Positions 5,625 through 28,335 of a stretch of DNA of 34,038 nucleotides are shown here, one piece after another (positions within the stretch are counted from its first letter, which is position 1; each line of letters opens with the position of its first letter). Source of the DNA: Thermoplasmata archaeon. Its GTDB lineage: Archaea > Thermoplasmatota > E2 > UBA202 > JdFR-43. Made by a program: the position numbers and the translations under genes. The stretch lies in contig VBQI01000001.1 of the NCBI GenBank assembly GCA_008297865.1, forward strand, positions 1 to 34,038. Reading direction: 5' to 3'. Under the pieces are notes generated by a model that did no database searches, was not told the DNA's origin, and worked only from the letters and a program-made list of their open reading frames with translations.

Positions 5625-6200
5625 TTATAGGGAATTAATTGAATGAAGTTTCTTTCCTCTCATTCCTATTGCCAAAGCCTCACCATATTCAATGATTTCC
5701 TCTTTCTCAACTGAAAATCTCTTTCTTATGTATTCCTCAATTTTATTTACATCAAGATGTTTTATATTCCTCTTTATATACCCACCCCTTTCATATCTTT
5801 CTTTGAAATATGAAGAAGAGGTGTTTAAAAGAATGGCAACAATTTTTCCTTCTTTTTTCAGAATTCTGTATGCTTCATCAATTGTCTTTCTGTAATCTTC
5901 TATAAATTCTAAGGATGTGATAAAAATTGCATTATCAAATGATGCATTTTTAAAAGGCAGAGCTGTTGCATCTGCTTTAATAACTTCTATTCTTTTACTT
6001 GCCATCTTTATCATCTCATCATCCAACTCCACTCCCACTATTTCCACTTTCTTTATCTCCATTATTCTTCTTTCAATTATTCCTGTTCCACATCCTATGC
6101 TTACTGCTATCTCTCCTTCTAAATTTTTTGCAACATATCTTGCTTCTTCTTCCAGAATTTTTTTACCTAAAGGCGTAGAAAAAAATTCATCATAATTCAT
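5625..6200 (-). CDS. Class I SAM-dependent methyltransferase
   Basis: Motif I 'VSIGCGTGI' and an acidic motif-II-like 'GVELDDEM'. 191 aa. ATGA overlap with the upstream gene at 6197-6200. Confidence 0.75.
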   Translation of the reverse strand: MNYDEFFSTPLGKKILEEEARYVAKNLEGEIAVSIGCGTGIIERRIMEIKKVEIVGVELDDEMIKMASKRIEVIKADATALPFKNASFDNAIFITSLEFIEDYRKTIDEAYRILKKEGKIVAILLNTSSSYFKERYERGGYIKRNIKHLDVNKIEEYIRKRFSVEKEEIIEYGEALAIGMRGKKLHSINSL

Positions 6201-6799
6201 ATCTCCACCACTTTACCAGCGAGGCATTCTATTGTGTTAGGAAAAGCTTCTATCTGCCTTTTAAGCTTAGTGCAGTGGCAGGGCATTACCAGCGGATATT
6301 TTCTCAGTAATTCTATCTCCTTAAAACCATGAAATCCTCCTATAATAGCATATATCTTGCCATATTTTTCTGCTATTTTTATCACATTTTTAAGTCCATT
6401 ATGACTGCATCCAGTGAAAATTACTATCTTGTCATCATCTTTAACAATTAAAGATTGTTCCCCATTTATTTCTCCAGTTGAAATAAAATTTGGAAGAAAT
6501 TCCTCATTACCTACTTTCATTCCTTTTAAATTAGAAGAAGGTGGAACATAAATTTTTCCTTCATATTTTAGTTTTAATTTTTTCAGCCCACCTGCATGAT
6601 CCCAATGGCTATGAGATATAAAAATGGCGTCTATATCATTTAAGCTAATCCCGAGCTTTTTCATATTATGTTTTAGCACACCGTATCTTCCTCCAGTATC
6701 GAAAAGCAAATTTATACTATGCTCTATGAAACATGAAAAACCCCAGCTTGCTTTAAAGCCCTGCAAAGCCTTATTGTCATAAACAATTTTAACAATCAT
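6197..6799 (-). CDS. MBL-fold metallo-hydrolase (COG1237-like)
   Basis: 'WGFSCFIE...LLFDTGG' and 'ISHSHWDHAGGL' (HxHxDH). ATGA overlaps at both ends. Confidence 0.75.
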   Translation of the reverse strand: MIVKIVYDNKALQGFKASWGFSCFIEHSINLLFDTGGRYGVLKHNMKKLGISLNDIDAIFISHSHWDHAGGLKKLKLKYEGKIYVPPSSNLKGMKVGNEEFLPNFISTGEINGEQSLIVKDDDKIVIFTGCSHNGLKNVIKIAEKYGKIYAIIGGFHGFKEIELLRKYPLVMPCHCTKLKRQIEAFPNTIECLAGKVVEI

Positions 6800-7431
6800 T
6801 CTTTCACCTTTGTAGGCTTTTTCAATTGCTTTAACTTTTCCTTAATGAATTTGTCAATACATTCATCTATGCCCTCCATTGCCATATATATTTCCACACC
6901 TTCATCTCCAAGCATATGAAAGGCAATTTCTCCAATTTCCTTTGTTATTAATGCATCTATGCCTTCTGAAATCAAAAATTTTGCGCATGAAAGTCCAGCT
7001 CTCATCTTTTTCTCCTTATATGGATTTTTAATCTCCCTTTTTTCAACAATCTTTCCTTCCTCTCTGTCCACTTTGAAAACTAAAAATTTTTCTGCCCTTC
7101 CAAAATGCTCAGAAACTTTATTGTCATCGATGGGAATTGCCGCTTTTGCATATCTTTCCTTATACGGCTCAATATGAATGGTGAAGAAATCCACTTCTTT
7201 CACTTCTTCTTTTATTTTTTCCTCTATCTTTCCTGCTATTTCATGAGCTTTACTCACATCTATACCTTTTTTAACAAAAATCTTTACCTCTCCAAATAAA
7301 AATGGGCCAGATTTCCTGAGCCTCAAATCATCAAATCCTCCTATATTTTCCATCTCATTTAGTGTATCTGTTATTTTCTCCTTTGCATATTTTGGAGAGA
7401 AATCCATGAGGGCGTAAATTGCGTCCTTCAT
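6796..7431 (-). CDS. Cation diffusion facilitator C-terminal cytoplasmic domain fused to a NifX-like (COG1433-type) domain
   Basis: The N-terminal half resembles a CDF C-terminal domain (DAIYALMDFSP...HEIAGKIEEKIKEEV...FTIHIEP). The C-terminal half carries the NifX-like signature 'SEHFGRAEKFLVFKV...GIDALITKEIGEIAF'. Confidence 0.65.
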   Translation of the reverse strand: MKDAIYALMDFSPKYAKEKITDTLNEMENIGGFDDLRLRKSGPFLFGEVKIFVKKGIDVSKAHEIAGKIEEKIKEEVKEVDFFTIHIEPYKERYAKAAIPIDDNKVSEHFGRAEKFLVFKVDREEGKIVEKREIKNPYKEKKMRAGLSCAKFLISEGIDALITKEIGEIAFHMLGDEGVEIYMAMEGIDECIDKFIKEKLKQLKKPTKVKE

Positions 7432-7436
7432 GCTTT

Positions 7437-8024
7437 CTATGCCAACTCTAAAATTAAAATTGATATTCCGATGCTGAAAATTCCTTCAACATATCGAACA
7501 TTGTAAAAATCCAGCGTGATACCCATCAGAACAAATATGGAAGAAATAGCATCTACTTTCCTTTCATGTCCTACAGCTATCAACGACTGCATTCCCTGCC
7601 TTTTCCCTACTTTGCATATATGAATGGCAATTACATAGGAAACTGCAATAGATATGATTGCTGTTAAAATGGCTATATATGGTATTTTTAGGGATGGAAT
7701 AGCATACAACTTTTTATAGCCCTCCATGGCTATTTCATATCCTGCAAAAAATATCAAAAAAGAAATGAACAAAGTTGCCAAATTCTCAGCTTTGTAGTAA
7801 CCATATGGAAATCTCTCATCTGGAGCTTTTGAGGCAATTTTTATTCCGATTGCAGCTGTAAAAATGACAAGCAAATCAGAGGCAGAATGCATTGCATCAG
7901 AGATAAGCAATAAGGAACCAGAAAAATAGCCAACTAAAGCCTTAAGCAAAGCAAGGAACAAGGTTGCTAGTCCTGCAAGCAAAGAAATTCTGTAACCCTC
8001 CTTAAACACATTTTGCTTTTTCAT
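7437..8024 (-). CDS. Cation diffusion facilitator (CDF) transmembrane domain; separated from its C-terminal domain by a frame change
   Basis: 'LKALVGYFSGSLLLISDAMHSASDLL' is a typical CDF TM1-2 metal-site motif. Multiple TM helices. It ends at TAG 7437-7439, and the continuation is in another frame. Confidence 0.7.
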   Translation of the reverse strand: MKKQNVFKEGYRISLLAGLATLFLALLKALVGYFSGSLLLISDAMHSASDLLVIFTAAIGIKIASKAPDERFPYGYYKAENLATLFISFLIFFAGYEIAMEGYKKLYAIPSLKIPYIAILTAIISIAVSYVIAIHICKVGKRQGMQSLIAVGHERKVDAISSIFVLMGITLDFYNVRYVEGIFSIGISILILELA

Positions 8025-8872
8025 TTTAACTTATTTTCAATTTTATTCCATATTTTACGCATTGATTCTGCAATATTTTCGTCATACTCAACAATATTCA
8101 ATCCCTTTACCATTGCTTCAGTAAATTTTTTATTGAAAGGTATTTTGCCAACAATATCAATACCCTTCTCTTTACAAAACCTCTCAATTTTTTCAGTCAT
8201 CCCCTCATTTATATCATATTTATTCACCACAACAACGGCTCTGATTTTAAAATGCTCCGCCACGCTAAGTATCCTTTCCATATCATGAATGGCTGCCATT
8301 GTGGGTTCCGCAACTATGATAACCAAGTCTGTATTCCCAATGGAAGCTATAACTGGACAGCCAATGCCGGCAGGAGAATCAATTATAATCAAATCTATTC
8401 CCTTCTTTTCAGCAACTTCCCTTGCTTTTTGTCTTACCTGAGCAACTAATTTGCCCGATGCCTCCTCTCCTGCTTCCAGAAGTCCGTAAACGAAGTTCCC
8501 AAATCTTGTGTTTGCAGTGTATATGTGCCCTGTTACTCTTTCATACATACTTATGGCATTTACTGGACAAACAAGCGTGCATACCTTGCAACCCTCGCAT
8601 TTCTCTTCCATTACCTTAAAATTTTCTATTGCGTTGAATCTGCAAGCTCTCTGACAAGCTCCACATTCAGTACATTTCTCCTCATCTATTCTTGCCACCT
8701 TCATTCCTTTATATGGTATCCTTTCCATTATCTCGGGCTTAAGAATGAGATGAAGATTGGGAGCATCAACATCGCAGTCAGCAAAAACTGCTTCAGTTAA
8801 TGAAGCAAAAGATGCAACTATGCTTGTTTTACCAGTTCCTCCTTTTCCACTTGCCACAGCAATTTGCCTCAT
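8021..8872 (-). CDS. MinD/ParA-superfamily P-loop ATPase with inserted 2x[4Fe-4S] ferredoxin motifs (COG1149-like)
   Basis: Deviant Walker A 'ASGKGGTGKTS'. 'CTECGACQRACRFNAI' and 'CEGCKVCTLVCPVNAI'. Confidence 0.85.
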   Translation of the reverse strand: MRQIAVASGKGGTGKTSIVASFASLTEAVFADCDVDAPNLHLILKPEIMERIPYKGMKVARIDEEKCTECGACQRACRFNAIENFKVMEEKCEGCKVCTLVCPVNAISMYERVTGHIYTANTRFGNFVYGLLEAGEEASGKLVAQVRQKAREVAEKKGIDLIIIDSPAGIGCPVIASIGNTDLVIIVAEPTMAAIHDMERILSVAEHFKIRAVVVVNKYDINEGMTEKIERFCKEKGIDIVGKIPFNKKFTEAMVKGLNIVEYDENIAESMRKIWNKIENKLK

Positions 8873-9615
8873 TCTGGTCTCCTCCTTTTCATTTCTTCAT
8901 AATCAATTGGTTTAACTTTTGGTGGATAAGAGGAATAAACATTTATTGTATTTAGCCCGTGAAAATGTTCCTCTACATCAAAAATTTCCCCCTTGCTTAA
9001 AGGCGGAACAGGTGATTTCCTTAGAGGTGTATTAATCTGCACATCATCTGGCTTAATTTCTCTTGCCAAATCAGCCATTTCTTCTGCATATTTTTTATTT
9101 TCTTTAACAAACATCATTTGGAGGGAAAATTTCTTTGCCTTTTTCCTCACCTCCTTGATACCTTCAATCATTTCATCAAATTTTATTTTTTCATGCGGTC
9201 TGTTAATTTTCTCAAAAATTTTTTTGTCTGGAGCATCAAGCTTCGCAACAATCCAGTCAATTTTTAATAAATCTTCCATAACATCTTCCCTGCTAAAAAG
9301 AGATGAATTTGTTAAAATAGCAATAGGCAATCCAAATTTTCTTGCATAGTCTGCAGAAAATCCCAAATTTCTTGCCAGGGTTGGCTCTCCTAAGCCAGAA
9401 AAGGTAATAACATCTGCTTCTATTTCATGAATGTTATCTAACTCTTTTTTTACTTGACTATTCTCAACAAATATTTTTCTTTCAATCGTCTTATGTTCTG
9501 TTCTGCCAAGCTGGCAGTAAATGCAATCAAATGAGCAGAATTTATCCACGCTTATTAAATCGATGCCAAGCGATTTACCTAGACGCCAAGAAGCAACAGG
9601 GCCATAAACAATCAT
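8869..9615 (-). CDS. Radical SAM protein (short, no SPASM-type extra Cys cluster)
   Basis: 'YGPVASWRLGKSLGIDLISVDKFCSFDCIYCQ' contains the CxxxCxxC motif. 248 aa. ATGA overlaps with both flanking MinD-like genes. Confidence 0.8.
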   Translation of the reverse strand: MIVYGPVASWRLGKSLGIDLISVDKFCSFDCIYCQLGRTEHKTIERKIFVENSQVKKELDNIHEIEADVITFSGLGEPTLARNLGFSADYARKFGLPIAILTNSSLFSREDVMEDLLKIDWIVAKLDAPDKKIFEKINRPHEKIKFDEMIEGIKEVRKKAKKFSLQMMFVKENKKYAEEMADLAREIKPDDVQINTPLRKSPVPPLSKGEIFDVEEHFHGLNTINVYSSYPPKVKPIDYEEMKRRRPE

Positions 9616-10427
9616 TTTATTGCCTCATACATTTCAATGAAATTCCTCTTCCATTCTTTCATTTCTTTTACAAATGGAATGCCAGCTGAATACAACTCTG
9701 CAATTTTTCTGCTGTAGGGAATTTTCATTAAAATTTCTATACCATCTTCCTTGCAGTATTTTTCAACGCCCTCATCTCCTATACCATATCTATTTATGAT
9801 CACACCAAATGGAATTTCAAGCTTTCTCACTATATTTATAGCTATTTTCAAATCATGTAGTCCAAAGGGTGTTGGCTCAGTAACTAATATAACGAAATCT
9901 GCTCCATGCATTGCTTCTATTGCAGGACATCCATTGCCAGGAGGTGCATCTAAAATTGATGTGTTTTGCTTATTCACATAACTCTTAAGTTTGGTTATGA
10001 TAGGCACCGCTCTGGCTTCTCCAATGTTTAGAATGCCTTGGTATATTTCCACTTCATTTTTTCCGTGATATATCTCTCCTATTTTCTTTTTTCCTTCTGT
10101 TATTGCATCATGCTCGCAAACTATTTTGCACCCTCCACATCCTGAGCATAATTCAGGAAAGAAAAGAATGTCAGAAGGAAGAACAGCTATCGCGTTATAT
10201 GCACAAAATTCAGCACATTTCTTGCAAAAAGTACACTTATTTAAGTCAAAAGAAGGATTCATTAAAAAAACGTCTTCTATTTTCTGCAGATTTGCCTTTA
10301 TAAAAATATTTGCATTCGGCTCTTCAACATCGCAATCATAAAGTTTGGCATCAGTGGCTAAAGCTAAATTTACCGCAACCGTTGTCTTGCCCGTGCCTCC
10401 CTTTCCAGATGCAACCGTAATTATCAT
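9612..10427 (-). CDS. MinD/ParA-superfamily P-loop ATPase with inserted 2x[4Fe-4S] ferredoxin motifs (COG1149-like), paralog 2
   Basis: 'ASGKGGTGKTT'. 'CTFCKKCAEFCAYNAI' and 'CSGCGGCKIVCEHDAI'. Confidence 0.85.
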   Translation of the reverse strand: MIITVASGKGGTGKTTVAVNLALATDAKLYDCDVEEPNANIFIKANLQKIEDVFLMNPSFDLNKCTFCKKCAEFCAYNAIAVLPSDILFFPELCSGCGGCKIVCEHDAITEGKKKIGEIYHGKNEVEIYQGILNIGEARAVPIITKLKSYVNKQNTSILDAPPGNGCPAIEAMHGADFVILVTEPTPFGLHDLKIAINIVRKLEIPFGVIINRYGIGDEGVEKYCKEDGIEILMKIPYSRKIAELYSAGIPFVKEMKEWKRNFIEMYEAIK

Positions 10428-11302
10428 GTATTCACCTTCAAAACAAGTTTACCTACCTCAGCATTTATATCCCGTGCAACCAAAGGACATTTAACCACAA
10501 GCAAGAAAAATACCTCTCTCTCACTATCACTCAGGGCTTCATAATTTCCCTGCCCCTTCGCAATAACCATATCTGCTGATCTAAAACACTCTAAAAACTC
10601 CTTAGATGCAAATTTCAGCAGTATACCAGGTGCAGAAATATCTTGACCAGCATCTCCAGCTATAACTTCTGCAATTTTGTCAATACCAGCCATTTTAGCA
10701 TCGTGAACAGTTGCATCATTAATTATTGGGTTTGCTCTGACAACGTAGATTATCTGTTTTTTTCGGCTTACAAGTTCTTCCAGCAATACCTTATCAAAAA
10801 ATATCTCTCCCGCATTATCTGCAAGATAGAGAATGGTTTTGGATTTATCTAAAACTTCTTTAAATTGTGGATATGCATCAGCAATGAAATCTGTTTCTAT
10901 TGCTTTGTCGATCATATCGTTAACATTGAAGCGGTTAGCAGCCCCAAAATCGATGACATTTCCTATTATAGCAAGCTTAATGGCTATGAGTAAAGAATCA
11001 TCTGCATTCTTAACAAGTTCTTTAAGACGGGGATACAGTTTCTCTGCCATTGCATTTGATTGCTCTTTAACCTTTTTGTAAGGATCTTTACACTTGGTTA
11101 TTCTCCTAATGTGCTCATGCACCTCTCGTGATATTTCTGGAGGCGGATTCTCAAAGGATATATTCTGGAGATATTTCATAACTTCTTTGACAACCTGTGC
11201 ATGAATGGCTTGATCATCAGTTGTCATACGGGCAGCTTCCAGTGATTGTTTAAGAAAACAAGGTATACAATCCAGATAGGTCTTCATGGCGTCACCATTC
11301 AA
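10424..11302 (-). CDS. DUF89 (ARMT1-like damage-control phosphatase) family protein
   Basis: N-terminal 'YLDCIPCFLKQSLEAARM', plus 'LADNAGEIFFDKVLLEEL' and 'VIAKGQGNYEAL', all typical of DUF89. Confidence 0.75.
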   Translation of the reverse strand: MNGDAMKTYLDCIPCFLKQSLEAARMTTDDQAIHAQVVKEVMKYLQNISFENPPPEISREVHEHIRRITKCKDPYKKVKEQSNAMAEKLYPRLKELVKNADDSLLIAIKLAIIGNVIDFGAANRFNVNDMIDKAIETDFIADAYPQFKEVLDKSKTILYLADNAGEIFFDKVLLEELVSRKKQIIYVVRANPIINDATVHDAKMAGIDKIAEVIAGDAGQDISAPGILLKFASKEFLECFRSADMVIAKGQGNYEALSDSEREVFFLLVVKCPLVARDINAEVGKLVLKVNT

Positions 11303-11683
11303 TTAAATATGATGATGTCTGTCCCTAAACGCATGCTCTCCACAAGCATCACTTATGGAAGCATTCTTTAATTCTCCTCTCATGAAAGCATCTAGTGCAT
11401 CTCTAACAGTGCCAGTTGCGCCAATGTATACTTCTATACCAAAATCTTGGAACATGTTTATTGCTCTTCTTCCAAGACCCCTGCATATCATCACCTTTAC
11501 ACCTTCTCTTGCAAGTAATTCAGGCGGATATCCCTGCCCACCCATGTGGTGGCTTGTATTGGGCACAACTCTCAACTCTTTTGTTTCAAGGTCAATGATG
11601 GTGTATGTTGGCACTCTCCCAAAATGCTCCCCAATTTGTTCATCCAAGCCTTTATTACCAAGGGTGGGAAAGGCTATCTTCAT
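11303..11683 (-). CDS. NifX/NifB-like iron-molybdenum-cofactor-binding domain protein (COG1433-like)
   Basis: 'MKIAFPT...[15 protein letters not shown]...[15 protein letters not shown]'. The ATG at 11683 makes an ATGA overlap with the upstream stop; the track start at 11707 overlaps the upstream ORF. Confidence 0.8.
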
Positions 11684-11865
11684 GCCCTCACCATGGGCAT
11701 ACCACACCTAGGACATCTCATCTGGCGGCAAGGTATGCCAGGAGTATGGGGCATTCTGTAGCCGCAGCTGGGGCATACACATTCTCCTACAGGACCTGCT
11801 CCTGCTCTGCCTCCTGCCCCTCTGCCTTTTCCCATGCCTGCTCCTCTTCCTGCTCCCATTCCCAT
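11680..11865 (-). CDS. Mini-protein: Gly/Arg/Met-rich N-terminus plus CxCxxC...CxxC zinc-ribbon
   Basis: 61 aa: [61 protein letters not shown]. The ATG directly follows the upstream TAA, and there is an ATGA overlap downstream. Confidence 0.6.
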
Positions 11866-12111
11866 TTAATCACCTTCCATTCTTTCAATCCATTCTTTCG
11901 TGCCTAGTAGCATGCTTTCCATCATTTTCAGTTGATCCATAATCATCATTAGCTCCACTTCTTCTGGTATTGGCTGAAATGGTTGCATTTGCATTGGCGG
12001 AGAAAGCTTTTTACTTTCTTTTCCTCCAACCAATTCAATAGCTCCTTGTGGGCATACATTAATGCATAATCCACAGCCAATACATCTTTCTTCTATAATT
12101 CTCGCCTTCAT
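11866..12111 (-). CDS. Single-motif [4Fe-4S] 'half-ferredoxin' with Pro/Met-rich linker and amphipathic helical tail
   Basis: 'CIGCGLCINVCPQGAI' is followed by 'SPPMQMQPFQPIPEEVELMMIMDQLKMMESML'. ATGA overlap with the upstream gene. Confidence 0.7.
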   Translation of the reverse strand: MKARIIEERCIGCGLCINVCPQGAIELVGGKESKKLSPPMQMQPFQPIPEEVELMMIMDQLKMMESMLLGTKEWIERMEGD

Positions 12112-12701
12112 TCTTTTAGCTCCTCCAACCTCTTTTTGATGGCAGATAGTAAGTCTTCGATGCGCTTTATCTCCTCTTCAATCATCTTTAGCTCTTCTTC
12201 TTTGCTCATTTGCATCGGCATTGGCGGAGAAGGCCATGAGGGATAGTATGGCGGATAAGATGGCGGAGGGTATGACGGCGATGGTGTTGTTGGATATGGA
12301 GGTTGTGGGTAGGGTTGCGTTGGTTGAGGAGGAGCAGAAGCAATGCTACCTCTTAACTCTCCTTTTAAGTATTTTTCTACAGCATCTTTTACCTTTCCTT
12401 GAGCTACCACCATTTCTACGCCAGCTTGCTGAAGAATTGCTGTAACATTAGGCCCAAAATTTCCTGCTATAACTGCTTTTGCTCTCTGGCTAACGATCCA
12501 TTGCCCCGTCTGTATGCCAGCCCCATGAACTGCAGAGGTAAATTGATTGGGCGTAACTTCGACATTTTTTATTTCATTTCCTTCTACTTCCACTATTGTA
12601 AATGTTTGACATCTTCCAAACACTGGAGAGACATCATCTTCCAAACCACCTTTATTAGTTGCTACTATTATTTTCATTTTATCTCCTCCTATTATTTTCA
12701 T
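12108..12701 (-). CDS. NifX-like (COG1433-type) domain + Pro/Tyr-rich linker + coiled-coil (DUF5320-like) tail
   Basis: 'MKIIVATNKGGLEDDVSPVFGRCQTFTIVEV...AVIAGNFGPNV', then 'PPQPTQPYPQPPYPTTPSPSYPPPSYPPYYPSWPSPPMPMQM', then 'EEELKMIEEEIKRIEDLLSAIKKRLEELKE'. Two in-frame ATGs (12701 and 12677) were created by a 24-bp tandem duplication; 12677 is probably the ancestral start. Confidence 0.75.
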   Translation of the reverse strand: MKIIGGDKMKIIVATNKGGLEDDVSPVFGRCQTFTIVEVEGNEIKNVEVTPNQFTSAVHGAGIQTGQWIVSQRAKAVIAGNFGPNVTAILQQAGVEMVVAQGKVKDAVEKYLKGELRGSIASAPPQPTQPYPQPPYPTTPSPSYPPPSYPPYYPSWPSPPMPMQMSKEEELKMIEEEIKRIEDLLSAIKKRLEELKE

Positions 12702-12714
12702 TTTATCTCCTCCT
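12667..12714. repeat. Perfect 24-bp tandem duplication covering SD + start codon of the NifX-like gene
   Basis: 'attattttcattttatctcctcct' at 12667-12690 and 12691-12714. On the minus strand this reads AGGAGGAGATAAAATGAAAATAAT twice. Confidence 0.9.
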
Positions 12715-12855
12715 TAACTGCTCAAGCCTTTTATTTATTTCTGCCAGCCTTGCCTCCAGCATCGCCTTCTCTTGTTCAAGCATCGCCATTTCTAACTCTG
12801 GCGGCATGAAAGGCGGCATGTATGGCATCCAAGGCATGAAATATGGCCAGTACAT
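12703..12855 (-). CDS. 50-aa mini-protein: aromatic/Pro/Met-rich N-terminus + coiled-coil (DUF5320-like) tail
   Basis: Hand-translated; too short for the ORF track. Sequence: MYWPYFMPWMPYMPPFMPPELEMAMLEQEKAMLEARLAEINKRLEQLRRR*. GGGTGA SD-like motif 6 nt upstream of the ATG. Same strand as the operon. Confidence 0.55.
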   Translation of the reverse strand: MYWPYFMPWMPYMPPFMPPELEMAMLEQEKAMLEARLAEINKRLEQLRRR

Positions 12856-12907
12856 TTTTTCACCCTAATAAATTTTAAGGAAAGAGGGAAGCTTGCTTGT
12901 TATACGG

Positions 12908-13117
12908 TTACCACCATGGATAGTAGTATGGGTACCAGTAATAGCTGTAATATGGGTACATCCAGGGCATATAACTATAGTATTGATAGTAGTATGGGTA
13001 CCAGTAATAGCTGTAATATGGGTACATCCAGGGCATATAACTATAGTATTGATAGTAAAGCCATGGCATTATGTATGGCATCATCAGCCATCCATATGGT
13101 CCCATGCCAAACGGCAT
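12908..13117 (-). CDS. 69-aa Tyr/Trp/Pro/Met-rich mini-protein with no charged residues
   Basis: MPFGMGPYGWLMMPYIMPWL(YYQYYSYMPWMYPYYSYYWYPY)x2 YYPWW. By my count 28 Tyr, 11 Pro, 9 Met, 8 Trp, and no D/E/K/R/H. GGAGGTGG SD upstream of the ATG. Operon strand. Confidence 0.55.
   Translation of the reverse strand: MPFGMGPYGWLMMPYIMPWLYYQYYSYMPWMYPYYSYYWYPYYYQYYSYMPWMYPYYSYYWYPYYYPWW
12919..13050. repeat. Perfect 66-bp tandem direct repeat (2 copies plus a 7-nt start of a third) inside the Tyr-rich mini-ORF
   Basis: 'gatagtagtatgggtaccagtaatagctgtaatatgggtacatccagggcatataactatagtatt' starts at 12919 and again at 12985. 'gatagta' recurs at 13051. Confidence 0.9.
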
Positions 13118-13120
13118 TTA

Positions 13121-13333
13121 TTACCACCTCCATGGCATGTAATATGGATAGCTATACATTGGCCAATATGGCATGCGCCACCATCCTCTTGGTAGCCATG
13201 GAAATCGCCTGCAGAATGGATATGGGTTTCCTCTGCCCCATCCTGGCCACCCTGACCATGCTGACCATCCGTAACCAGGCCATCCATAACCATACCATCC
13301 AGCACGCCATCCAAATCCTCTTCCCCAAGGCAT
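13121..13333 (-). CDS. 70-aa Trp/Gly/Arg/Pro/Tyr-rich basic mini-protein (N-terminus reminiscent of DUF5320)
   Basis: MPWGRGFGWRAGWYGYGWPGYGWSAWSGWPGWGRGNPYPFCRRFPWLPRGWWRMPYWPMYSYPYYMPWRW. By my count 14 Trp, 13 Gly, 8 Arg, and no acidic residue. GGTGAT SD 4 nt upstream. It ends in a double stop (TAATAA) immediately before the next ATG. Confidence 0.55.
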   Translation of the reverse strand: MPWGRGFGWRAGWYGYGWPGYGWSAWSGWPGWGRGNPYPFCRRFPWLPRGWWRMPYWPMYSYPYYMPWRW

Positions 13334-13414
13334 TTTATCACCTGATGGAATATATAGTAAGAAATATATAAAAATTTCGCCAAACTTTTATATAATTTTT
13401 TCTATATAAGCATA
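13334..13414. promoter_or_regulatory. Divergent promoter region between the mini-protein operon and the DUF134 gene
   Basis: 81-bp AT-rich spacer with several TATA-like boxes: TATATAG 13351-13357, ATATATAAAAATTT ~13365-13378, TTTTATATAA ~13386-13395 and CTATATAAG 13401-13409. The last two lie about 6-29 nt upstream of the + strand ATG. The reverse complement AAATTTTTATATAT faces the minus-strand operon. Confidence 0.4.
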
Positions 13415-13705
13415 ATGCCAGGGAGGAGAAGATGCAGAAGATGGGTTGAAATGCTACCTTCTGCAAGCGTTTTCATTCCCAATATTCCATATAATGGCGT
13501 AGTTTTTTTGCGTATAGAAGAATTTGAAGCTTTTCGCCTTGTGGATTATCTTGGTTTAACTCAGCATGAAGCAGCAGCACAAATGGGTATATCTCAGAAA
13601 GCATTATGGAATGATTTAAAAAATGCGCATTTTAAAATTGCGGATGCCATCATAAATGGAAAGGCAATAAGAATAGAAGGAGGAAATTATGCACTTATAA
13701 GATAA
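13415..13705 (+). CDS. DUF134 (UPF0251) family HTH protein, putative transcriptional regulator
   Basis: 'MPGRRRCRRW...' and 'LRIEEFEAFRLVDYLGLTQHEAAAQMGISQKALWNDLKNAHFKIADAIINGKAIRIEGG' match my recollection of the DUF134 consensus (sigma-70 region 4-like HTH). Confidence 0.8.
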   Translation: MPGRRRCRRWVEMLPSASVFIPNIPYNGVVFLRIEEFEAFRLVDYLGLTQHEAAAQMGISQKALWNDLKNAHFKIADAIINGKAIRIEGGNYALIR

Positions 13706-13724: not shown

Positions 13725-14258
13725 TCATCCCTCATCAATTTCTATCTCAGTATATTCTTCTAAAAGGCTTATGGCTTCTGCTGTCAACTCCTTTATTTTT
13801 TCTGCTGCTTCCTTGATGGAGTCACGGTCATTAATATCCATTGCTCTGATGTGCAGGAATATGCCAAGCTCCCAGCAATAGAAAATCATTTCAGCTTGGC
13901 TTGCATCTGAATTCACATCTTGGATTTTCTTTATCGGATTGAGGAGCATGAGCGAGATGAAACTTGTGGCGCTAGCTCCGCCAAAACCAAGTCCTTCAAC
14001 TATCTTTAGCCAGTCATTGTTTGCAGGAAGAGCAGTCAGCAATGCAATCGTGAGAAAGAATAACCCGACTGCAAAAATTGCAATTGAAAAAATATAAATG
14101 ATGTATTTCGCTTTTCTTAGCTCTCTACAGAATTTTCTAATTTTCTCTTTCAAAATAGGCATTTCCTCCATCAATATTTTCATGATAATGCTATTAAGCT
14201 GTAAATTAGCTCTATCTCTATCAAATTTTTCTATCATCCTGTCTAATTTTTTTATCAT
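13725..14258 (-). CDS. Hypothetical membrane protein with helical/coiled flanks
   Basis: 177-aa ORF. Central TM segments (YIIYIFSIAIFAVGLFFLTIALLTAL; GLGFGGASATSFISLMLL). No recognised family. Confidence 0.5.
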   Translation of the reverse strand: MIKKLDRMIEKFDRDRANLQLNSIIMKILMEEMPILKEKIRKFCRELRKAKYIIYIFSIAIFAVGLFFLTIALLTALPANNDWLKIVEGLGFGGASATSFISLMLLNPIKKIQDVNSDASQAEMIFYCWELGIFLHIRAMDINDRDSIKEAAEKIKELTAEAISLLEEYTEIEIDEG

Positions 14259-18493: not shown

Positions 18494-19303
18494 TCACTTC
18501 CTTAATCTTCCGAAGAAATGGGCATAGACTGCTGATATAATTAATATGAAGGTTGCCATTAAAACAATGCATGCTCCAGTTGGTAAATCTAAAAGAAGAC
18601 TTAAAAATATACCTCCTACTGCAGAAAAACTGCCTAAAATAGCTGAAAAACACAAAATAAGTTTTATATTTTCAGAAAGCAGGAAAGCAGATGCTGCAGG
18701 AATGAAAAGCAATGAAAAAACAAGGAAACCACCAACCAATTTTAATATTAATGAGACTGTAACTCCTGATAAAAACATTAAGGAGTATTTGTATGCCTTA
18801 ACATTTATTCCTTCCGCCTCCGCCAGCTTGCTGTCAAACAATAGGGATTTTAGTTGAGGGAAGAAGGCAATGATGTAAATTAAAACAAGGAAAAAGAGGA
18901 TGGAAAGGAAAACTGTATAGCCAGAAGTAACTGTCAAAATGCTACCCCATAATATGCTTGATACTGCTTGAGCAGATATGACACCTCCAGGAGAAATTGA
19001 GATGAAAATGAATGCGAAAGCTGTATAGATAGAAAAGAGAGACATCGAAAATAAATCGAACGGAATATGAAACAAATCAGCCAATGGGCCAAGGAATAAA
19101 GCCGTTAAAATAGCCAGAATCAGGCCAATTGTAGAAGGTTCCATACCCAAAAACATGGCAAGGGCAGCCCCAGCCAAAGCAGCATGAGCAGTAGAGAATG
19201 CTACTGTATTTAAATTGAGCCTTGTTATATGAACACCCATTAACCCACATAAAAAGCCAGCAAAAATTGCTGCAATAAATGCTCTGATTAAAATAGTTAA
19301 CAA
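18494..19303 (-). CDS. Metal (Zn/Mn/Fe-type, ABC-3 family) ABC transporter permease
   Basis: 269 aa and highly hydrophobic with ~8 TM segments, ZnuB/TroC-like. Overlaps the ATPase gene by 7 nt. Confidence 0.8.
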   Translation of the reverse strand: MLTILIRAFIAAIFAGFLCGLMGVHITRLNLNTVAFSTAHAALAGAALAMFLGMEPSTIGLILAILTALFLGPLADLFHIPFDLFSMSLFSIYTAFAFIFISISPGGVISAQAVSSILWGSILTVTSGYTVFLSILFFLVLIYIIAFFPQLKSLLFDSKLAEAEGINVKAYKYSLMFLSGVTVSLILKLVGGFLVFSLLFIPAASAFLLSENIKLILCFSAILGSFSAVGGIFLSLLLDLPTGACIVLMATFILIISAVYAHFFGRLRK

Positions 19304-19983
19304 CTAATCACCATGCCATTTTTCATTTTTATTATCCTATCAAATTCTATCTTTGGTGTTATATGTGATACTATAAGAATAGTTACATTCTCGTTTCTGT
19401 TCAAATTTTCGAGTATATCACATATTTCATGTCTGGCTTCTTTGTCAACAGAGCTAAAAGGCTCATCAAGAAAAAGTATTTTTGGCTGTCTAGCTAAGGC
19501 TCTTGCCATCAGCACTTTTTGCTGTTGTCCTGCACTTAATCTTCCAATTGGTTTGTTTAAAAGCTCGACAGCTTTTACTTTTTTTAATGCTTCTAAAATG
19601 TTACCATTATTTGCATTTTTTCCAATGCTTGCGAAGCCCATTGCCACAACATCTTTTACTATAAAAGGTTCTCCGGCTGGCTTTATAAAATCTTGCGGAA
19701 GATATCCACAGTATTTTCTAGCTTTTATTGCATCCTTTGGCATTTCATATCCCAGCAATTTTATTTTTCCTTCGTAAGGCTTTAACAAGCCTAATATTGT
19801 TTCGAGAAGCGTTGTCTTGCCTGCTCCATTTGGGCCAGTAATTAAGACAATTTCTCCTTTTCTTATTTCAAGGCTAATATTCTTTATTGCTGGCTTAAGC
19901 TCTCCTGCATATGAAGTTGATACATTTTCTAATTCAATTACTCTATTTCGTAAATTTCCTCTACTTGCAAACTGCGCAACCAT
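19297..19983 (-). CDS. Metal ABC transporter ATP-binding protein (ZnuC-like)
   Basis: Walker A 'GPNGAGKTT', signature 'LSAGQQQ', Walker B 'ILFLDEP', H-loop 'VSH'. Confidence 0.85.
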   Translation of the reverse strand: MVAQFASRGNLRNRVIELENVSTSYAGELKPAIKNISLEIRKGEIVLITGPNGAGKTTLLETILGLLKPYEGKIKLLGYEMPKDAIKARKYCGYLPQDFIKPAGEPFIVKDVVAMGFASIGKNANNGNILEALKKVKAVELLNKPIGRLSAGQQQKVLMARALARQPKILFLDEPFSSVDKEARHEICDILENLNRNENVTILIVSHITPKIEFDRIIKMKNGMVISC

Positions 19984-20321
19984 TTTATGCCTTCCTGCAT
20001 GTCCAGCTCCTCCAATTTTTTGAGCACTTCCTTTCTTACTTTAAAAAATATTCTTTTATCTCCACTTCCTACTTCGACTTCGATATCGTTTCCATCCTCT
20101 ACCTTTATATTTCCTTTACCAAAAGTGCACGAACTGCTGCACTGTAAGCCATCTATGGCACATGAAAAAGGTGTTTTCAGAGGGCATTTTATCATTGCTT
20201 TTAACTCAAATTCATTTTTTGGCTTAAGTTTATCAACGGCATATTTTCCAGCAATATAGCCAAGTAATAAATATGGACCTAAATGCCCATGAAATTTCTT
20301 TGCTTCCTCCTCACTTAACAT
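19938..20321 (-). CDS. FmdE/FwdE-domain protein
   Basis: 'FHGHLGPYLLLGY' is typical of the FmdE family, plus 'CAIDGLQCSSSCTFGKGN'. I prefer the ATG at 20321, which follows GGAGGAAAA (SD). Confidence 0.65.
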   Translation of the reverse strand: MLSEEEAKKFHGHLGPYLLLGYIAGKYAVDKLKPKNEFELKAMIKCPLKTPFSCAIDGLQCSSSCTFGKGNIKVEDGNDIEVEVGSGDKRIFFKVRKEVLKKLEELDMQEGIKWLRSLQVEEIYEIE

Positions 20322-21237
20322 TTTTCCTCCATATAATGATTGCTTCAACAATTGCTACGGCAATTAAACCAAAAGTGGCATATTCATAAACTTGTAATTT
20401 TGATTTTATTAATGAAAGCTCACTCCTAATCCCTAAATTTTCTACTGCTGAGGCAAGTTTTTTGGCATTGTACATCATAACTGCAGACATATTATGTAGC
20501 TCCGTGCCAGTTCCTGGAAAGTTTGTTAAAACTACATGCACCAATCCCATGCCTTCCAATGCTTCACCCAAACTTGTTCCACTTTGTAAATTACTTATCA
20601 CAAGCTTAATATTCTCTTCCCTTATTTTTTCTTCAATTTCAGCAATATCTTGGCTTGTTAGTGTTTCTGGTGAAGGATAGCTTATTGTAACATTAAAGCC
20701 GAGGTAGGAGACAAAAGCTTTTTGAAATTCTTGACAGCATACTTTTATATCACCAAATCCATTTTCTTCAGCAATTTTTTTGAGCTCACTATCAGTTTTA
20801 TTTATATACTCCAAGCAACTCTGTAATCTGTCTCCCAAATCAATTTTTTCTTCTAATATAGAAGCAATTTGCCGATAATATTTCCTCAAATTTTCTGGGG
20901 TATTCCATGGTCCACTAACTTTTTCTATAACAACGTCTTCTTTAAGTTCTTCCTCGATCTGTTCAACCCATGGCTCAAATCCTTGGTAAATCAATATATC
21001 TGCTTTTGTAGCAATTTCTATATCACTTGGTTTGAGATCATAGTGAGCAGGGCATAATGATGGATTAGCAATTGTATATACTTCTACTTTATCTCCTGCT
21101 AAATCCTCAACAATGCTTCCTGTTATGCTTGTAGTAGTTACAACCCTTATCTTTTCATTCTCTGCATTGTTTAGTGGTAGAAATAGCAGGCAAACAATAA
21201 GAAATATGTAATACCTTTTCATAAAAACGTAATACAT
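20311..21237 (-). CDS. Metal ABC transporter substrate-binding protein (ZnuA/TroA-like) with C-terminal TM anchor
   Basis: N-terminal signal segment. 'IRVVTTTSITGSIVEDLAGDKVEV...CPAHYDLKPSD...ADILIYQGFEPWV'. C-terminal 'ATFGLIAVAIVEAIIIW' anchor. Confidence 0.75.
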   Translation of the reverse strand: MYYVFMKRYYIFLIVCLLFLPLNNAENEKIRVVTTTSITGSIVEDLAGDKVEVYTIANPSLCPAHYDLKPSDIEIATKADILIYQGFEPWVEQIEEELKEDVVIEKVSGPWNTPENLRKYYRQIASILEEKIDLGDRLQSCLEYINKTDSELKKIAEENGFGDIKVCCQEFQKAFVSYLGFNVTISYPSPETLTSQDIAEIEEKIREENIKLVISNLQSGTSLGEALEGMGLVHVVLTNFPGTGTELHNMSAVMMYNAKKLASAVENLGIRSELSLIKSKLQVYEYATFGLIAVAIVEAIIIWRKNVK

Positions 21238-26896: not shown

Positions 26897-26996
26897 GAAT
26901 GTAAATTCATAAGCATTAAAAATATTTTGGGAAAACTTTATAAATAACATTCATATTATTAACGTCCATTATTTGAACGTTCATAGGGAGGATGTT

Positions 26997-27623
26997 ATGA
27001 AAATACTACTTGTAATGCCAGCTATAAAGCCCAATGCATCTCTTTATGAAAAATTATTGCTAAAGCTTACAATGTGGTCTTCTATTACTTTACAACAATT
27101 ATATGCACTAACAGATGATGAGCATGAAGTAAAAATTATAGATGAAAATTATGAAAAGATAAGATATGATGGAAACTATGATTTGGTAGCTATTTCCACC
27201 TTCACTTCTACAGCTTTTCGTGCATATGAAATTGCAGATAGATTTAGGGGAAAGGGCATAAAGGTAGTACTCGGGGGATACCATCCAACAGCTTTGCCGG
27301 AGGAAGCGAAGCAGCATGCAGACGCTGTTGTCATAGGAGAAGCAGAAGGAGTTTGGCAGACTTTATTGGAGGATGCTGAAAAAGATGATTTAAAGCCATT
27401 TTATATAAGCAATCCAGTTAGTGGCGAGGAAATTATATCGCCTGTAGAAAACAAATATTTCTCTATTGTTAAAGGAGTGGAGGCTACAAGAGGATGTATA
27501 AACAGGTGTAATTTTTGCGCAATTTCAAATTCTTTAATAGGTTGTAAGTTTAGGAAAAAACCAATTGAAAGAGTAATAAAGGAGATAGAAAATTTGAAAT
27601 GCAAGAGCTTTGTTTTTTTATGA
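26997..27623 (+). CDS. B12-binding-domain radical SAM protein, N-terminal part (frameshifted)
   Basis: GGGAGGATGTT SD before the ATG at 26997. B12-binding-like 'YDLVAISTFTSTA...KVVLGGYHPT'. Radical SAM 'ATRGCINRCNFCAI' (CxxxCxxC). The ORF ends right after a T7 run. Confidence 0.7.
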   Translation: MKILLVMPAIKPNASLYEKLLLKLTMWSSITLQQLYALTDDEHEVKIIDENYEKIRYDGNYDLVAISTFTSTAFRAYEIADRFRGKGIKVVLGGYHPTALPEEAKQHADAVVIGEAEGVWQTLLEDAEKDDLKPFYISNPVSGEEIISPVENKYFSIVKGVEATRGCINRCNFCAISNSLIGCKFRKKPIERVIKEIENLKCKSFVFL

Positions 27624-28335
27624 TTCTTCATTGACTATTGATGCAAAATATACTAAAGAACTGTTTAAGAGATTAAAAGAACTCAATAAAAATTTTGCAT
27701 GTTTTGGAAATGCAAATGTTTTGGCGAGAGATGAAGAATTGTTGAAATTAGCTTATGATGCAGGTTGTGTTGCTTGGGCTGTGGGATTTGAAAGCGTTTT
27801 GCAAAGCACATTAAGTAGCATAGGAAAAAGAAATAGAGTAGATGACTATGAAAAGGTAGTTAAAAAAGTAAATGAGTATGGAATGGCATTAATTGCTTCT
27901 TTTGTTTTTGGTTTTGATAACGATACAGAAAATGTATTTAATGAAACTCTTAACGCCCTTTATAAATGGAATGTAGATTCAATAGGTGTCAATATACTTA
28001 CTCCCTTTCCAGGAACACCGTTATTTAGACAACTTGATAATGAGGGCAGAATTTTAACAAAAAACTGGAGTAAATATGATTTATATCATGTTGTTCATTT
28101 GCCAAAAAGAATGACACCAGAAAAGCTATACAATGGAGTAAAAATGTTGGCTGAAAATTTCTTTTCATTTTCGAACATACTTAAAAAAATCTTTGGGAAG
28201 AAATTTGATTTTATAACTAGAGCATCTCTGTCATATCATTTATTTACTTCCAGGGCCGTATACAAAGCAGTTTTTAAAGAAAAAGAAGAAATTGTGAGTA
28301 AAGAAAATCTCTGTAAAGCCATCATAAGAATTTAA
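27610..28335 (+). CDS. B12-binding-domain radical SAM protein, C-terminal part (frameshifted)
   Basis: It continues the radical SAM barrel in the +1 frame: 'FFYDSSLTIDAKYTKELFKRL...GFESV...NILTPFPGTPLF'. It has only a TTG 'start' that lies inside the T-run region. Confidence 0.65.
   Translation: MFFYDSSLTIDAKYTKELFKRLKELNKNFACFGNANVLARDEELLKLAYDAGCVAWAVGFESVLQSTLSSIGKRNRVDDYEKVVKKVNEYGMALIASFVFGFDNDTENVFNETLNALYKWNVDSIGVNILTPFPGTPLFRQLDNEGRILTKNWSKYDLYHVVHLPKRMTPEKLYNGVKMLAENFFSFSNILKKIFGKKFDFITRASLSYHLFTSRAVYKAVFKEKEEIVSKENLCKAIIRI

Follow-up and report, generated by a model that had tools for sequence, protein, structure and literature searches.

The DNA analysed here (the window) is a 34,038-nt stretch of contig VBQI01000001.1 from a Thermoplasmata archaeon. 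Its minus strand carries a tightly packed operon of 14 genes that is probably an elaborate archaeal form of the Orp ("orange protein") and IssA-type clusters, with which anaerobes seem to bind, move or store iron–sulfur material; it has a pair of Fe–S ATPases, NifX-like carriers and a divergent gene for a DUF134 regulator. The listing of open reading frames (ORFs) shows an uninterrupted row of 15 minus-strand ORFs between 13333 and 5625 and, divergent from them, an ORF of 96 amino acids (aa) at 13415–13705. An earlier reading of the letters without database searches (the sequence-only reading) had described a 15-ORF operon. The coordinates of its ORFs held; its gene number falls to 14 because we read ORFs 7437–8024 and 6796–7431 as one gene. 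All eight junctions that it had listed as ATGA overlaps read ATGA on the minus strand (12108–12111, 11680–11683, 10424–10427, 9612–9615, 8869–8872, 8021–8024, 6796–6799 and 6197–6200). The other ORF junctions measure 3, 52, 1, 0, 15 and 5 nt, and a GGAGG/GGTGA-like motif lies 4 to 9 nt 5′ of the start in 12 to 13 of the 15 ORFs.

Pfam and NCBIfam searches confirmed every family assigned from the letters: PF02579 (NifX-like), MinD/CbiA with two Fer4 motifs (two proteins), Radical_SAM, ARMT1/DUF89, a single Fer4 motif, Cation_efflux with ZT_dimer, Lactamase_B, Methyltransf_11 and the divergent DUF134. The NifX-like domains number three, as counted before, and the third of them belongs to the transporter gene. 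The earlier statement that nifHDK are absent also stood, with no nif structural gene among the Pfam matches of the window's annotated ORFs. Scans of the whole window for tRNAs and Rfam families found no feature. A sigma-70 promoter/terminator scan, whose model is inapplicable to an archaeon, returned fewer sites than shuffled controls.

Two operon genes encode MinD/ParA-type ATPases, one A-type (9612–10427) and one B-type (8021–8872; these and all operon genes below are on the minus strand). Each consists of a CbiA/ParA core with two CxxCxxCxxxC motifs, forming an Orp3/Orp4-like 2x[4Fe-4S] insert. About 200 ATPase ORFs from related loci (described below) split into A-type (104) and B-type (93) orthologous groups. 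The subunits have a deviant Walker A motif and nine conserved cysteines each. In the B-type, the eight ferredoxin cysteines are conserved at 0.99–1.0. A cysteine seven residues after the switch II aspartate (D-x6-C) is conserved at 0.88 in the A-type (Cys167) and at 1.00 in the B-type (Cys172), and the cysteine of a DCD motif at 0.81 and 0.69, respectively. NifH has the same D-x6-C spacing between Asp125 and Cys132, a likeness that may be relevant to the present ATPases. The C-termini give an amphipathic-helix signal (hydrophobic moment 0.64–0.70). Among solved structures, archaeal MinD proteins come closest to the ATPase core, McdA (6NOO) is one of the weak PDB matches, and the PDB search returned no solved structure from this ferredoxin-containing family. 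An exact look-up of the window ATPase matched no record. The single-domain NifX-like protein (11303–11683; 126 aa, PF02579 E=1.7e-20), a putative Orp8-like carrier, has a His-rich C-terminus. It matches 1T3V and 1O13 (both at about E=5e-18), the orange protein ORP (2WFB, 6e-06) and the C-terminal domain of MrpORP.

This ATPase pair with its NifX-like carriers corresponds to the Orp3/Orp4/Orp8 core. The Orp complex of Desulfovibrio comprises Orp3, Orp4, Orp5, Orp8 and Orp9; Orp3 and Orp4 carry two [4Fe-4S] motifs each, Orp8 is an orange protein homologue, and these three co-purify and receive Fe–S from MrpORP (PMC6345978). An oxidising environment shuts off the orp operons, whose function is described as still unclear (PMC8359166). 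The sequence-only reading had held that no member of the operon has an experimentally defined role. This did not survive, since the core is that of Orp3/Orp4/Orp8 of Desulfovibrio vulgaris, which have been studied (PMC6345978, PMC8359166). Searches of the literature turned up no functional study of DUF134, DUF5320, COG1149 or COG1433. In three Desulfobacterales loci (L048, L055 and L082), an Mrp+NifX ORF beside the ATPase pair reaches the NCBIfam MrpORP equivalog, at 501–518 bits against a cut-off of 450; we therefore take these loci as true orp clusters and the window ATPases as of the Orp3/Orp4 type.

The window resembles the Orp system of D. vulgaris Hildenborough in three respects. Two paralogous MinD-type ATPases with two [4Fe-4S] motifs adjoin single-domain NifX-like ("Di-Nase") proteins, a small Cys-rich protein (a possible Orp5 counterpart) is encoded just upstream of the ATPase pair, and the system is confined to anaerobes. 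It differs in having no Mrp/NBP35-type Orp9 (partial NF041136 matches reach 45–50 bits, against the cut-off of 450) and in forming one operon, whereas D. vulgaris has two divergent operons. The archaeal window has a divergent DUF134 gene instead of a sigma-54 promoter and the activator OrpR. Its additional proteins are DUF5320-type peptides, a half-ferredoxin and DUF89, radical SAM (S-adenosylmethionine), CDF-NifX, metallo-β-lactamase (MBL)-fold and methyltransferase proteins.

The ATPase pair could instead be a MinD/ParA-type spatial organiser, acting in division or positioning, with the metal centres serving only as redox sensors. The archaeal MinD proteins as closest solved relatives, the deviant Walker A motif and the C-terminal amphipathic-helix signal would all suit such a role, as would the morphological defects that follow loss of orp expression in Desulfovibrio and the polar localisation of MrpORP (PMC8359166, PMC6345978). 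The nine conserved cysteines and the obligate pairing with NifX are foreign to MinD systems, however; no MinC or MinE-like gene or other Min partner is among the recurrent neighbours, and these are iron and Fe–S genes. Carboxysome positioning by McdA and McdB combines a ParA-type ATPase with small, disordered coiled-coil adaptors. The window may resemble it in encoding a MinD/ParA-family ATPase alongside small proteins in which disordered, low-complexity sequence is combined with a coiled-coil helix at the C-terminus. McdA lacks the ferredoxin inserts and the conserved cysteines, and the window system has no known cargo compartment. We judge a spatial organiser to be the least probable of the explanations considered here.

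Three relatives, at 83%, 75% and 67% ATPase identity (L001, L003 and L004), have the same gene order and show how much of the operon is kept. L001 has everything but CDF-NifX, with FeoA-FeoA-FeoB and a DtxR-type repressor directly downstream. L003 has an intact CDF-NifX gene and lacks DUF89 and the half-ferredoxin. L004 keeps the peptides, the NifX protein with a C-terminal tail (NifX+tail), both ATPases, CDF-NifX and the methyltransferase; radical SAM, DUF89 and MBL are missing. A 177-aa ORF beyond the DUF134 gene (13725–14258, minus strand) has no Pfam match and appears not to be part of the unit, because L001 and L003 carry an acetyltransferase gene at the same place.

A wider scan, with one genome per species and an alignment of both ATPase paralogues, yielded 80 loci at 46–57% identity, whose ORFs were labelled with profiles built from the window proteins. 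The archaeal loci include Altiarchaeota, Thermoplasmatota, several methanogen orders, ANME-1, Bathyarchaeia and Thorarchaeota; the bacterial ones include Chloroflexota, Desulfobacterota, Omnitrophota, Ignavibacteria, Bipolaricaulota and Planctomycetota. By strict criteria the tandem ATPase pair is present in 65 of the 80 loci; most of the others are explained by contig ends or by the calling of ORFs. NifX-like genes occur in 73 loci, with one to three of them beside the ATPase pair. In 35 loci the flanks measure 4 kb or more on both sides. Among these, NifX-like genes are found in 34, DUF5320-type genes in 20, DUF134 in 16, the Cys-rich peptide in 15, radical SAM in 13, MBL in 10, DUF89 in 8, the methyltransferase in 4 and CDF-NifX in 2. 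By these counts, the core of the unit hardly varies and its shell is optional.

A two-sequence CDF-NifX alignment, used as the seed of an independent scan of metagenomes, gave 46 fusion loci, 19 of them well flanked. Sixteen of these 19 carry cluster genes: DUF134 and the Cys-rich peptide (14 loci each), NifX (13), the ATPase pair (12), MBL (10) and FeoB (5). A word-index search with the CTD-NifX piece returned four proteins, a number that is no gauge of prevalence. The parts are also joined by fusion (DUF134+Cys module, DUF134+NifX, NifX+helix, motif+helix, ferredoxin+motif and CDF+NifX), which argues that they belong together. Chance adjacency, which the sequence-only reading had named as what would refute it, is rejected by the synteny conserved in the relatives and the 80 loci. 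Its suggestion of a distinct variant was half right. The full combination exists and is confined to close Thermoplasmata relatives (L001, L003, L086 and L088); the CDF-NifX, MBL, methyltransferase, DUF89, radical SAM and small-peptide genes are optional modules that recur in many phyla.

The operon opens with genes for small proteins. The first (13121–13333) encodes a cationic mini-protein of 70 aa that is rich in Trp, Gly, Arg, Tyr and Pro and has the conserved core GRGNPYPFCRRFPWLPRGWW. It contains 26 aromatic residues, 13 Gly, 8 Arg, 11 Pro, 1 Cys and no acidic residue, and its isoelectric point (pI) is 10.3. AlphaFold2 (AF2) gave no stable fold (mean predicted local distance difference test score, pLDDT, 48), and a Pfam scan returned no family covering the protein. 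Fourteen word-index homologues have the invariant motif GRGNPYPFCRxFPWLPRGWW in common, and the motif is found alone, fused to a DUF5320 helix or after a 2x[4Fe-4S] ferredoxin. A profile search among 1.84e9 proteins found just 77 representatives of the family. Relative to L001 the gene has four synonymous codon changes and one nonsynonymous change; since the substitutions lie mainly at third codon positions, the ORF is probably translated in this frame. We regard it as an unannotated, undescribed family and not as mere low-complexity sequence.

The next ORF (12908–13117) encodes a mini-protein of 69 aa that is rich in Tyr, Trp, Pro and Met (54% aromatic), has an internal 21-aa tandem duplication and has no Pfam match. 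Its counterpart in L001 has 48 aa and one repeat fewer, with 94% identity across 49 aligned codons (the stop counted); the lengthening from 48 to 69 aa corresponds to a 63-nt (21-aa) repeat. The third protein (12703–12855; 50 aa, 94% identical in L001) combines an aromatic, Pro- and Met-rich head with a C-terminal helix of the DUF5320 type (PF17253 positions 63–99, E=8.4e-05). Matches of window proteins to PF17253 cover the C-terminal helix only and reach 24.1 bits, for this protein, and 17.5 bits, short of the 27 bits that Pfam sets as its gathering threshold; in relatives, true DUF5320 proteins encoded at this position score 35–104 bits.

The fourth ORF (12108–12701; 197 aa) encodes the NifX+tail protein, a NifX-like domain (PF02579 residues 21–113, E=9e-20) followed by a Pro-rich linker (19 Pro in 40 residues) and a DUF5320-type helix. 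AF2 gave no secondary structure for residues 105–158 and a helix at 159–188 (pLDDT 85–93). The gene probably starts at 12677, because the upstream ATG at 12701 arises from a 24-nt duplication, relative to L001, of the ribosome-binding site and start (12654–12701). The best solved relative of the protein is MTH1175 (1EO1, E=1.2e-14), and it also matches the orange protein 2WFB (E=3.7e-08). The half-ferredoxin (11866–12111; 81 aa, conserved in L001) has one CxxCxxCxxxCP motif (PF00037 E=3.5e-10), a Pro/Met/Gln linker and a helical tail. We built a hidden Markov model (HMM) of the helix from DUF5320 C-termini of other loci. It matched the 50-aa protein at E=1e-14 and NifX+tail at E=2.8e-11, so that these two clearly end in one DUF5320-type helix; the half-ferredoxin tail matched weakly (9.9 bits, E=2.7e-4 with Z=8).

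Seven other loci (L009, L038, L043, L047, L051, L054 and L061) have small ORFs upstream of NifX genes that join the same coiled-coil helix to NMYYxTGLPGWMRFGYSPGW, a further head variant of the DUF5320 superfamily that is absent from the window. The identity between the window and the sister lineage is a mosaic over this region (10400–13400 against 7100–10000 of L001). From the 70-aa peptide through DUF89 the 5′ module is mostly 92–100% identical in DNA to L001, three repeat-type indels set aside; DUF134 is about 80% and the ATPase/radical SAM/ATPase genes are mostly 70–87% identical. The GC content is 0.41–0.44 over about 11000–13400, against about 0.35. This pattern suggests that the module was exchanged by recent recombination, with breakpoints close to the promoter and at the DUF89/ATPase junction.

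The divergent gene (13415–13705, plus strand) encodes a putative DNA-binding regulator of 96 aa (DUF134, PF02001 E=1.1e-24, with weak Sigma70_r4 matches) and is divergent from the operon in L001 and L003 as well. The 81 nt between the two (13334–13414) form a putative promoter/operator region, which is AT-rich and contains two TATA-like boxes as well as a TTTTGGCGAAA element at its centre. Its mean column identity with L001 and L003 is 90%, whereas the coding DNA of L003 is just about 72–78% identical. The compact conserved unit with a divergent DUF134 gene that had been read from the letters is thus borne out, across a highly conserved promoter region. The window regulator is a short form. 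Many relatives have a Cys-rich C-terminal module; in 18 related loci the C-terminus of DUF134 consists of a Gly/Arg linker and a CxCPxCG..H..PC..CPxCG module, and the 96-aa protein stops at the point where the fused forms continue into these.

A free copy of the module is encoded within the operon (11680–11865), as a Gly/Arg-rich Cys6His peptide of 61 aa with the same CxCPxCG..H..PC..CPxCG end. It is 100% identical in aa sequence to that of L001 and has about 35 homologues in the loci, several with a DUF5320 N-terminal match; in these homologues the Gly/Arg-rich head is related to the DUF5320 N-terminus. The sequence-only reading had called it a Zn-ribbon peptide. It has only weak Zn-ribbon matches, and with six cysteines and one histidine it may bind Fe–S. 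The fusion of the module to DUF134 in other genomes argues that the peptide is a partner of the regulator, probably its sensor. By size and position the peptide may also be the equivalent of Orp5: homologues lie directly upstream of the ATPase pair in the orp-type loci L048 and L055, and the size is similar to that of Orp5, a homologue of which binds [2Fe-2S] (PMC6345978). Two further fusions tie both partners to the carrier domain. In L079 (665–1459) DUF134 is fused to a NifX-like domain, and in L067 (342–908) a NifX-like domain is fused to the Cys-rich peptide module.

The transporter gene (6796–8024; PF01545, PF16916 and PF02579) encodes a CDF metal transporter fused to a NifX-like domain and is frameshifted in the window. 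ORF 7437–8024 holds the CDF membrane domain, and ORF 6796–7431 holds the cytoplasmic ZT_dimer domain and the NifX-like domain. The Cation_efflux and ZT_dimer domains are therefore both present but in different frames, owing to a 1-nt deletion. In a DNA alignment, one base is lost after ATTTTAATTTT: the window has T4 at 7450–7453 where the metagenome contig L088 has T5. Over 2805 nt, L088 and the window are 98.6% identical, with the missing T as the sole gap, and the CDF-NifX ORF of L088 is intact at 409 aa. Because relatives (L003, L004 and L088) encode one unbroken protein of 405–409 aa, only one base is missing and the downstream piece (6796–7431) has no Shine–Dalgarno motif, we take the two ORFs to be a single CDF-ZT_dimer-NifX gene. 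An in-frame TAG, read as pyrrolysine or by readthrough, was rejected as the cause of the split, since the pieces are in different frames and a T is missing from the T5 run.

The frameshift is due either to a mistake in the assembly or to a mutation that arose very recently. Elsewhere in the window, a B12-binding-domain ORF (26973–27623, plus strand) and a Radical_SAM ORF (27610–28335, plus strand), whose Pfam match begins at profile position 62, overlap by 14 nt at a T7 run. Together (26973–28335) they are probably one B12-dependent radical SAM gene split by a homopolymer frameshift, and this second apparently split gene makes an assembly error plausible for CDF-NifX. The L001 lineage lacks the CDF-NifX gene altogether. 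The nearest CDF proteins without a NifX fusion (about 25% identity) are found in metagenome loci L157, L160 and L163 as tandem pairs adjoining FeoB and a DtxR-type repressor, which hints that the CDF clade of the window transporter handles iron.

The surroundings of the 80 loci bear on which metal the system may serve. The unlabelled neighbour ORFs were clustered with no family presupposed, and the ten largest of the recurrent clusters were searched against Pfam. These are NifU_N (26 loci), a sigma-54 activator (13, bacterial only), an AsnC-type regulator (9), Fur (9), DUF1847 (7), DUF364/DUF4213 (6), a disulfide oxidoreductase (6), DtxR (5), FeoB (4) and DUF169 (4). Published expression data agree with a role in iron or iron-sulfide handling. 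In pyrite-grown Methanococcus voltae, IssA homologues are up together with FeoB and DtxR (PMC8516115). The ten most sulfur-induced genes of Palaeococcus include SipA, another gene of the NifX-like type and two genes annotated as "CobQ + Fe-S domain" (PMC6981617); from this annotation we infer that the last two are of the present ATPase family. Within the window, some 5 kb away from the operon, there is a ZnuABC-type metal ABC uptake system (18494–21237, minus strand) with an ABC-3 permease, an ABC ATPase and a binding protein like ZnuA.

Handling of molybdenum or tungsten would be a different function for the same parts: storage or detoxification of thiomolybdate, thiotungstate or Mo–Cu sulfide, as by the Desulfovibrio orange protein. 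Both free NifX-like proteins do match 2WFB (E=3.7e-08 and 6e-06), Orp8 homologues bind S2MoS2CuS2MoS2 (PMC6345978), and the radical SAM enzyme has weak sub-threshold matches to a tungsten-cofactor maturase and MoaA. Other NifX-like structures match better than ORP, however, and the NifX-like domain of MrpORP binds Fe–S (PMC6345978). The recurrent neighbour clusters, of which Pfam was run on the ten largest, include no gene for molybdenum or tungsten transport or cofactors; NifU_N, Fur, DtxR and FeoB are found instead, and FeoAB and DtxR abut the L001 operon. We consider this function very unlikely. Taken with FeoB in the CDF-seeded loci, these recurrent neighbours and the Feo/DtxR genes beside the L001 operon favour iron or iron sulfide over molybdenum or tungsten. 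Of the metallocluster or cofactor machine proposed in the sequence-only reading, the metallocluster-handling parts stand; cofactor assembly becomes one possibility, and the context points to iron or iron-sulfide handling.

Four accessory enzymes are encoded with the core. The DUF89/ARMT1-like protein (10424–11287; PF01937 E=1.5e-72), of metal-dependent phosphatase fold, has an NCBIfam damage-control phosphatase match below the cut-off. The radical SAM enzyme (8869–9615; 248 aa, PF04055 E=7.5e-19) lies between the two ATPase genes. Searches returned no NCBIfam equivalog, no PDB sequence match and no match to TIGR01290 (NifB) for it. A gene for it occupies the same position in L001, L003 and L089, with longer forms of 260–293 aa in L086, L111 and L148. 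A short, COG1237-like MBL-fold protein (6197–6799; PF00753 E=1e-11) matches 7DCK (2.8e-27) and TM1679 (1.3e-20) in the PDB; its gene is present in 10 of the 35 MinD-seeded and 10 of the 19 CDF-seeded well-flanked loci. The last gene (5625–6200; PF08241 E=2e-18) encodes a class I SAM-dependent methyltransferase, is present in L001, L003 and L004 as well and ends 3 nt from a convergent amidohydrolase gene.

These enzymes invite the reading that the operon is an assembly line that makes some distinct organometallic cofactor, or a complex cluster, by the logic of nitrogenase maturation, close to what the sequence-only reading proposed. The radical SAM enzyme and the methyltransferase would modify a cluster held by NifX, the NifH-like ATPases would insert it, and DUF89 and MBL would process a phospho- or ester-linked ligand. 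In the window, L001 and L003 the genes of these enzymes are translationally coupled to the core, and each recurs in other phyla. NifB joins a radical SAM domain to a NifX-like domain (PMC8351635). The operon shares with nitrogenase maturation (NifB, NifX, NafY and NifH) its NifX-like carriers, a radical SAM gene in the same operon and a dimeric deviant-Walker-A Fe–S ATPase with a conserved cysteine seven residues past the switch II Asp, as in NifH. It differs in that Pfam matches of the annotated ORFs include no nifHDK or nifEN, the radical SAM enzyme matches neither NifB nor any named family, and the ATPases are MinD-like and not NifH-like by sequence, with ferredoxin inserts. Moreover, the enzymes are optional (13, 10, 8 and 4 of the 35 loci for radical SAM, MBL, DUF89 and the methyltransferase, with three of the four missing from L004), no candidate client enzyme is co-located, and the neighbours are generic iron and Fe–S genes. 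We think such an assembly line unlikely, and the foremost of the alternatives.

A second known system enters through the NifX+tail protein. IssA (SipA, PF2025) of Pyrococcus furiosus likewise joins an N-terminal IPR003731/PF02579 domain to a Pro-rich stretch, and both have an iron and sulfide genomic context. We know of no need of IssA for MinD-type ATPases. The best solved relative of NifX+tail, MTH1175, is of the IssA type (PMC5524996). In the window the cationic aromatic segment is a separate gene, whereas it is a tail in IssA; the tail of the window NifX protein is acidic and ends in a coiled-coil-type helix.

Our best explanation, to which we give about as much credence as doubt, is that this is an archaeal, DUF134-controlled operon of the Orp family whose products use ATP and redox chemistry to bind, store and release iron-sulfide species in a strict anaerobe. 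The shared helices would gather the NifX domain, the ferredoxin and the disordered aromatic and cationic peptides into a scaffold, which would hold anionic Fe–S polymers or clusters in an IssA-like arrangement made from separate chains. A heterodimer of the A and B ATPases, acting like NifH in cofactor maturation, would use ATP and electrons to load Fe–S material onto the NifX carriers, or release it from them, and on to clients. CDF-NifX may link the Fe–S pool to metal efflux through its NifX domain, DUF134 and the Cys-rich peptide may sense this pool and control transcription, and the radical SAM, methyltransferase, DUF89 and MBL proteins would be lineage-specific accessories.

Several points weigh against this explanation. 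Tails of the IssA clade are defined by a whole-protein pI of at least 9, fewer than five Cys and at least 20% Gly in the last 40 residues (PMC5524996). NifX+tail, with a whole-protein pI of 5.6, a tail pI of 4.9 and no Gly in its last 40 residues, falls outside this definition, so that any IssA-like arrangement would have to come from separate chains. Composition of the IssA tail type is found only in the separate 70-aa peptide. The IssA tail (70 residues) has 15 Gly, 7 cationic residues, 11 Pro, 1 Cys, 14 aromatic residues and a pI of 10.7 (PMC5524996); the mini-protein is alike in length, charge, Gly, Pro and Cys and differs in aromatic content (26 against 14), a likeness of composition only, with no homology shown. 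Pyrococcus without IssA still forms thioferrate-like iron (PMC8219758), the orange protein binds a Mo–Cu sulfide cluster and not Fe–S (PMC6345978), and the phenotype of the Desulfovibrio Orp mutant is morphological (PMC8359166). A pure storage or trafficking model leaves the radical SAM, methyltransferase, DUF89 and MBL proteins unexplained. Finally, the proposal presumes a single transcript, for which gene spacing is the evidence.

A bolder form of the proposal is that the small DUF5320-superfamily proteins, the GRGNPYPFCRxFPWLPRGWW family among them, are disordered, sticky scaffolds that link NifX-like domains with ferredoxins by way of the common coiled-coil helix and so build an iron-sulfide body, an IssA-like thioferrate particle or condensate, which the ferredoxin-containing ATPase pair assembles, positions or dissolves by redox chemistry. 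We hold this to be quite unlikely; if true, it would mean a widespread storage organelle system with a ParA-like motor in anaerobic archaea and bacteria.

The kind of system is already known, from the Orp cluster and the IssA-type carriers, and is not a new machine. New here are its archaeal, DUF134-controlled form, the DUF5320-superfamily peptides with a family of undescribed motif, the split regulator and the CDF-NifX fusion. An Orp-type core of ATPases and carriers and IssA-like parts thus share one unit with a metal exporter that bears a fused carrier domain and with a candidate sensor–regulator pair; this suggests that Orp and IssA, separate in the literature, are one system. To our knowledge, IssA is the sole storage protein described for iron and sulfide in strict anaerobes, and the role of Orp is unclear after 15 years. 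The proposal offers testable parts in the shared assembly helix, the new peptide motif, the split regulator and the post-switch-II cysteine of both ATPase paralogues. The cluster family is present in many uncultured archaeal and bacterial phyla (among them methanogens, ANME, Bathyarchaeia, Asgard archaea, Chloroflexota and Desulfobacterota), and a function assigned to this operon would annotate thousands of genomes.

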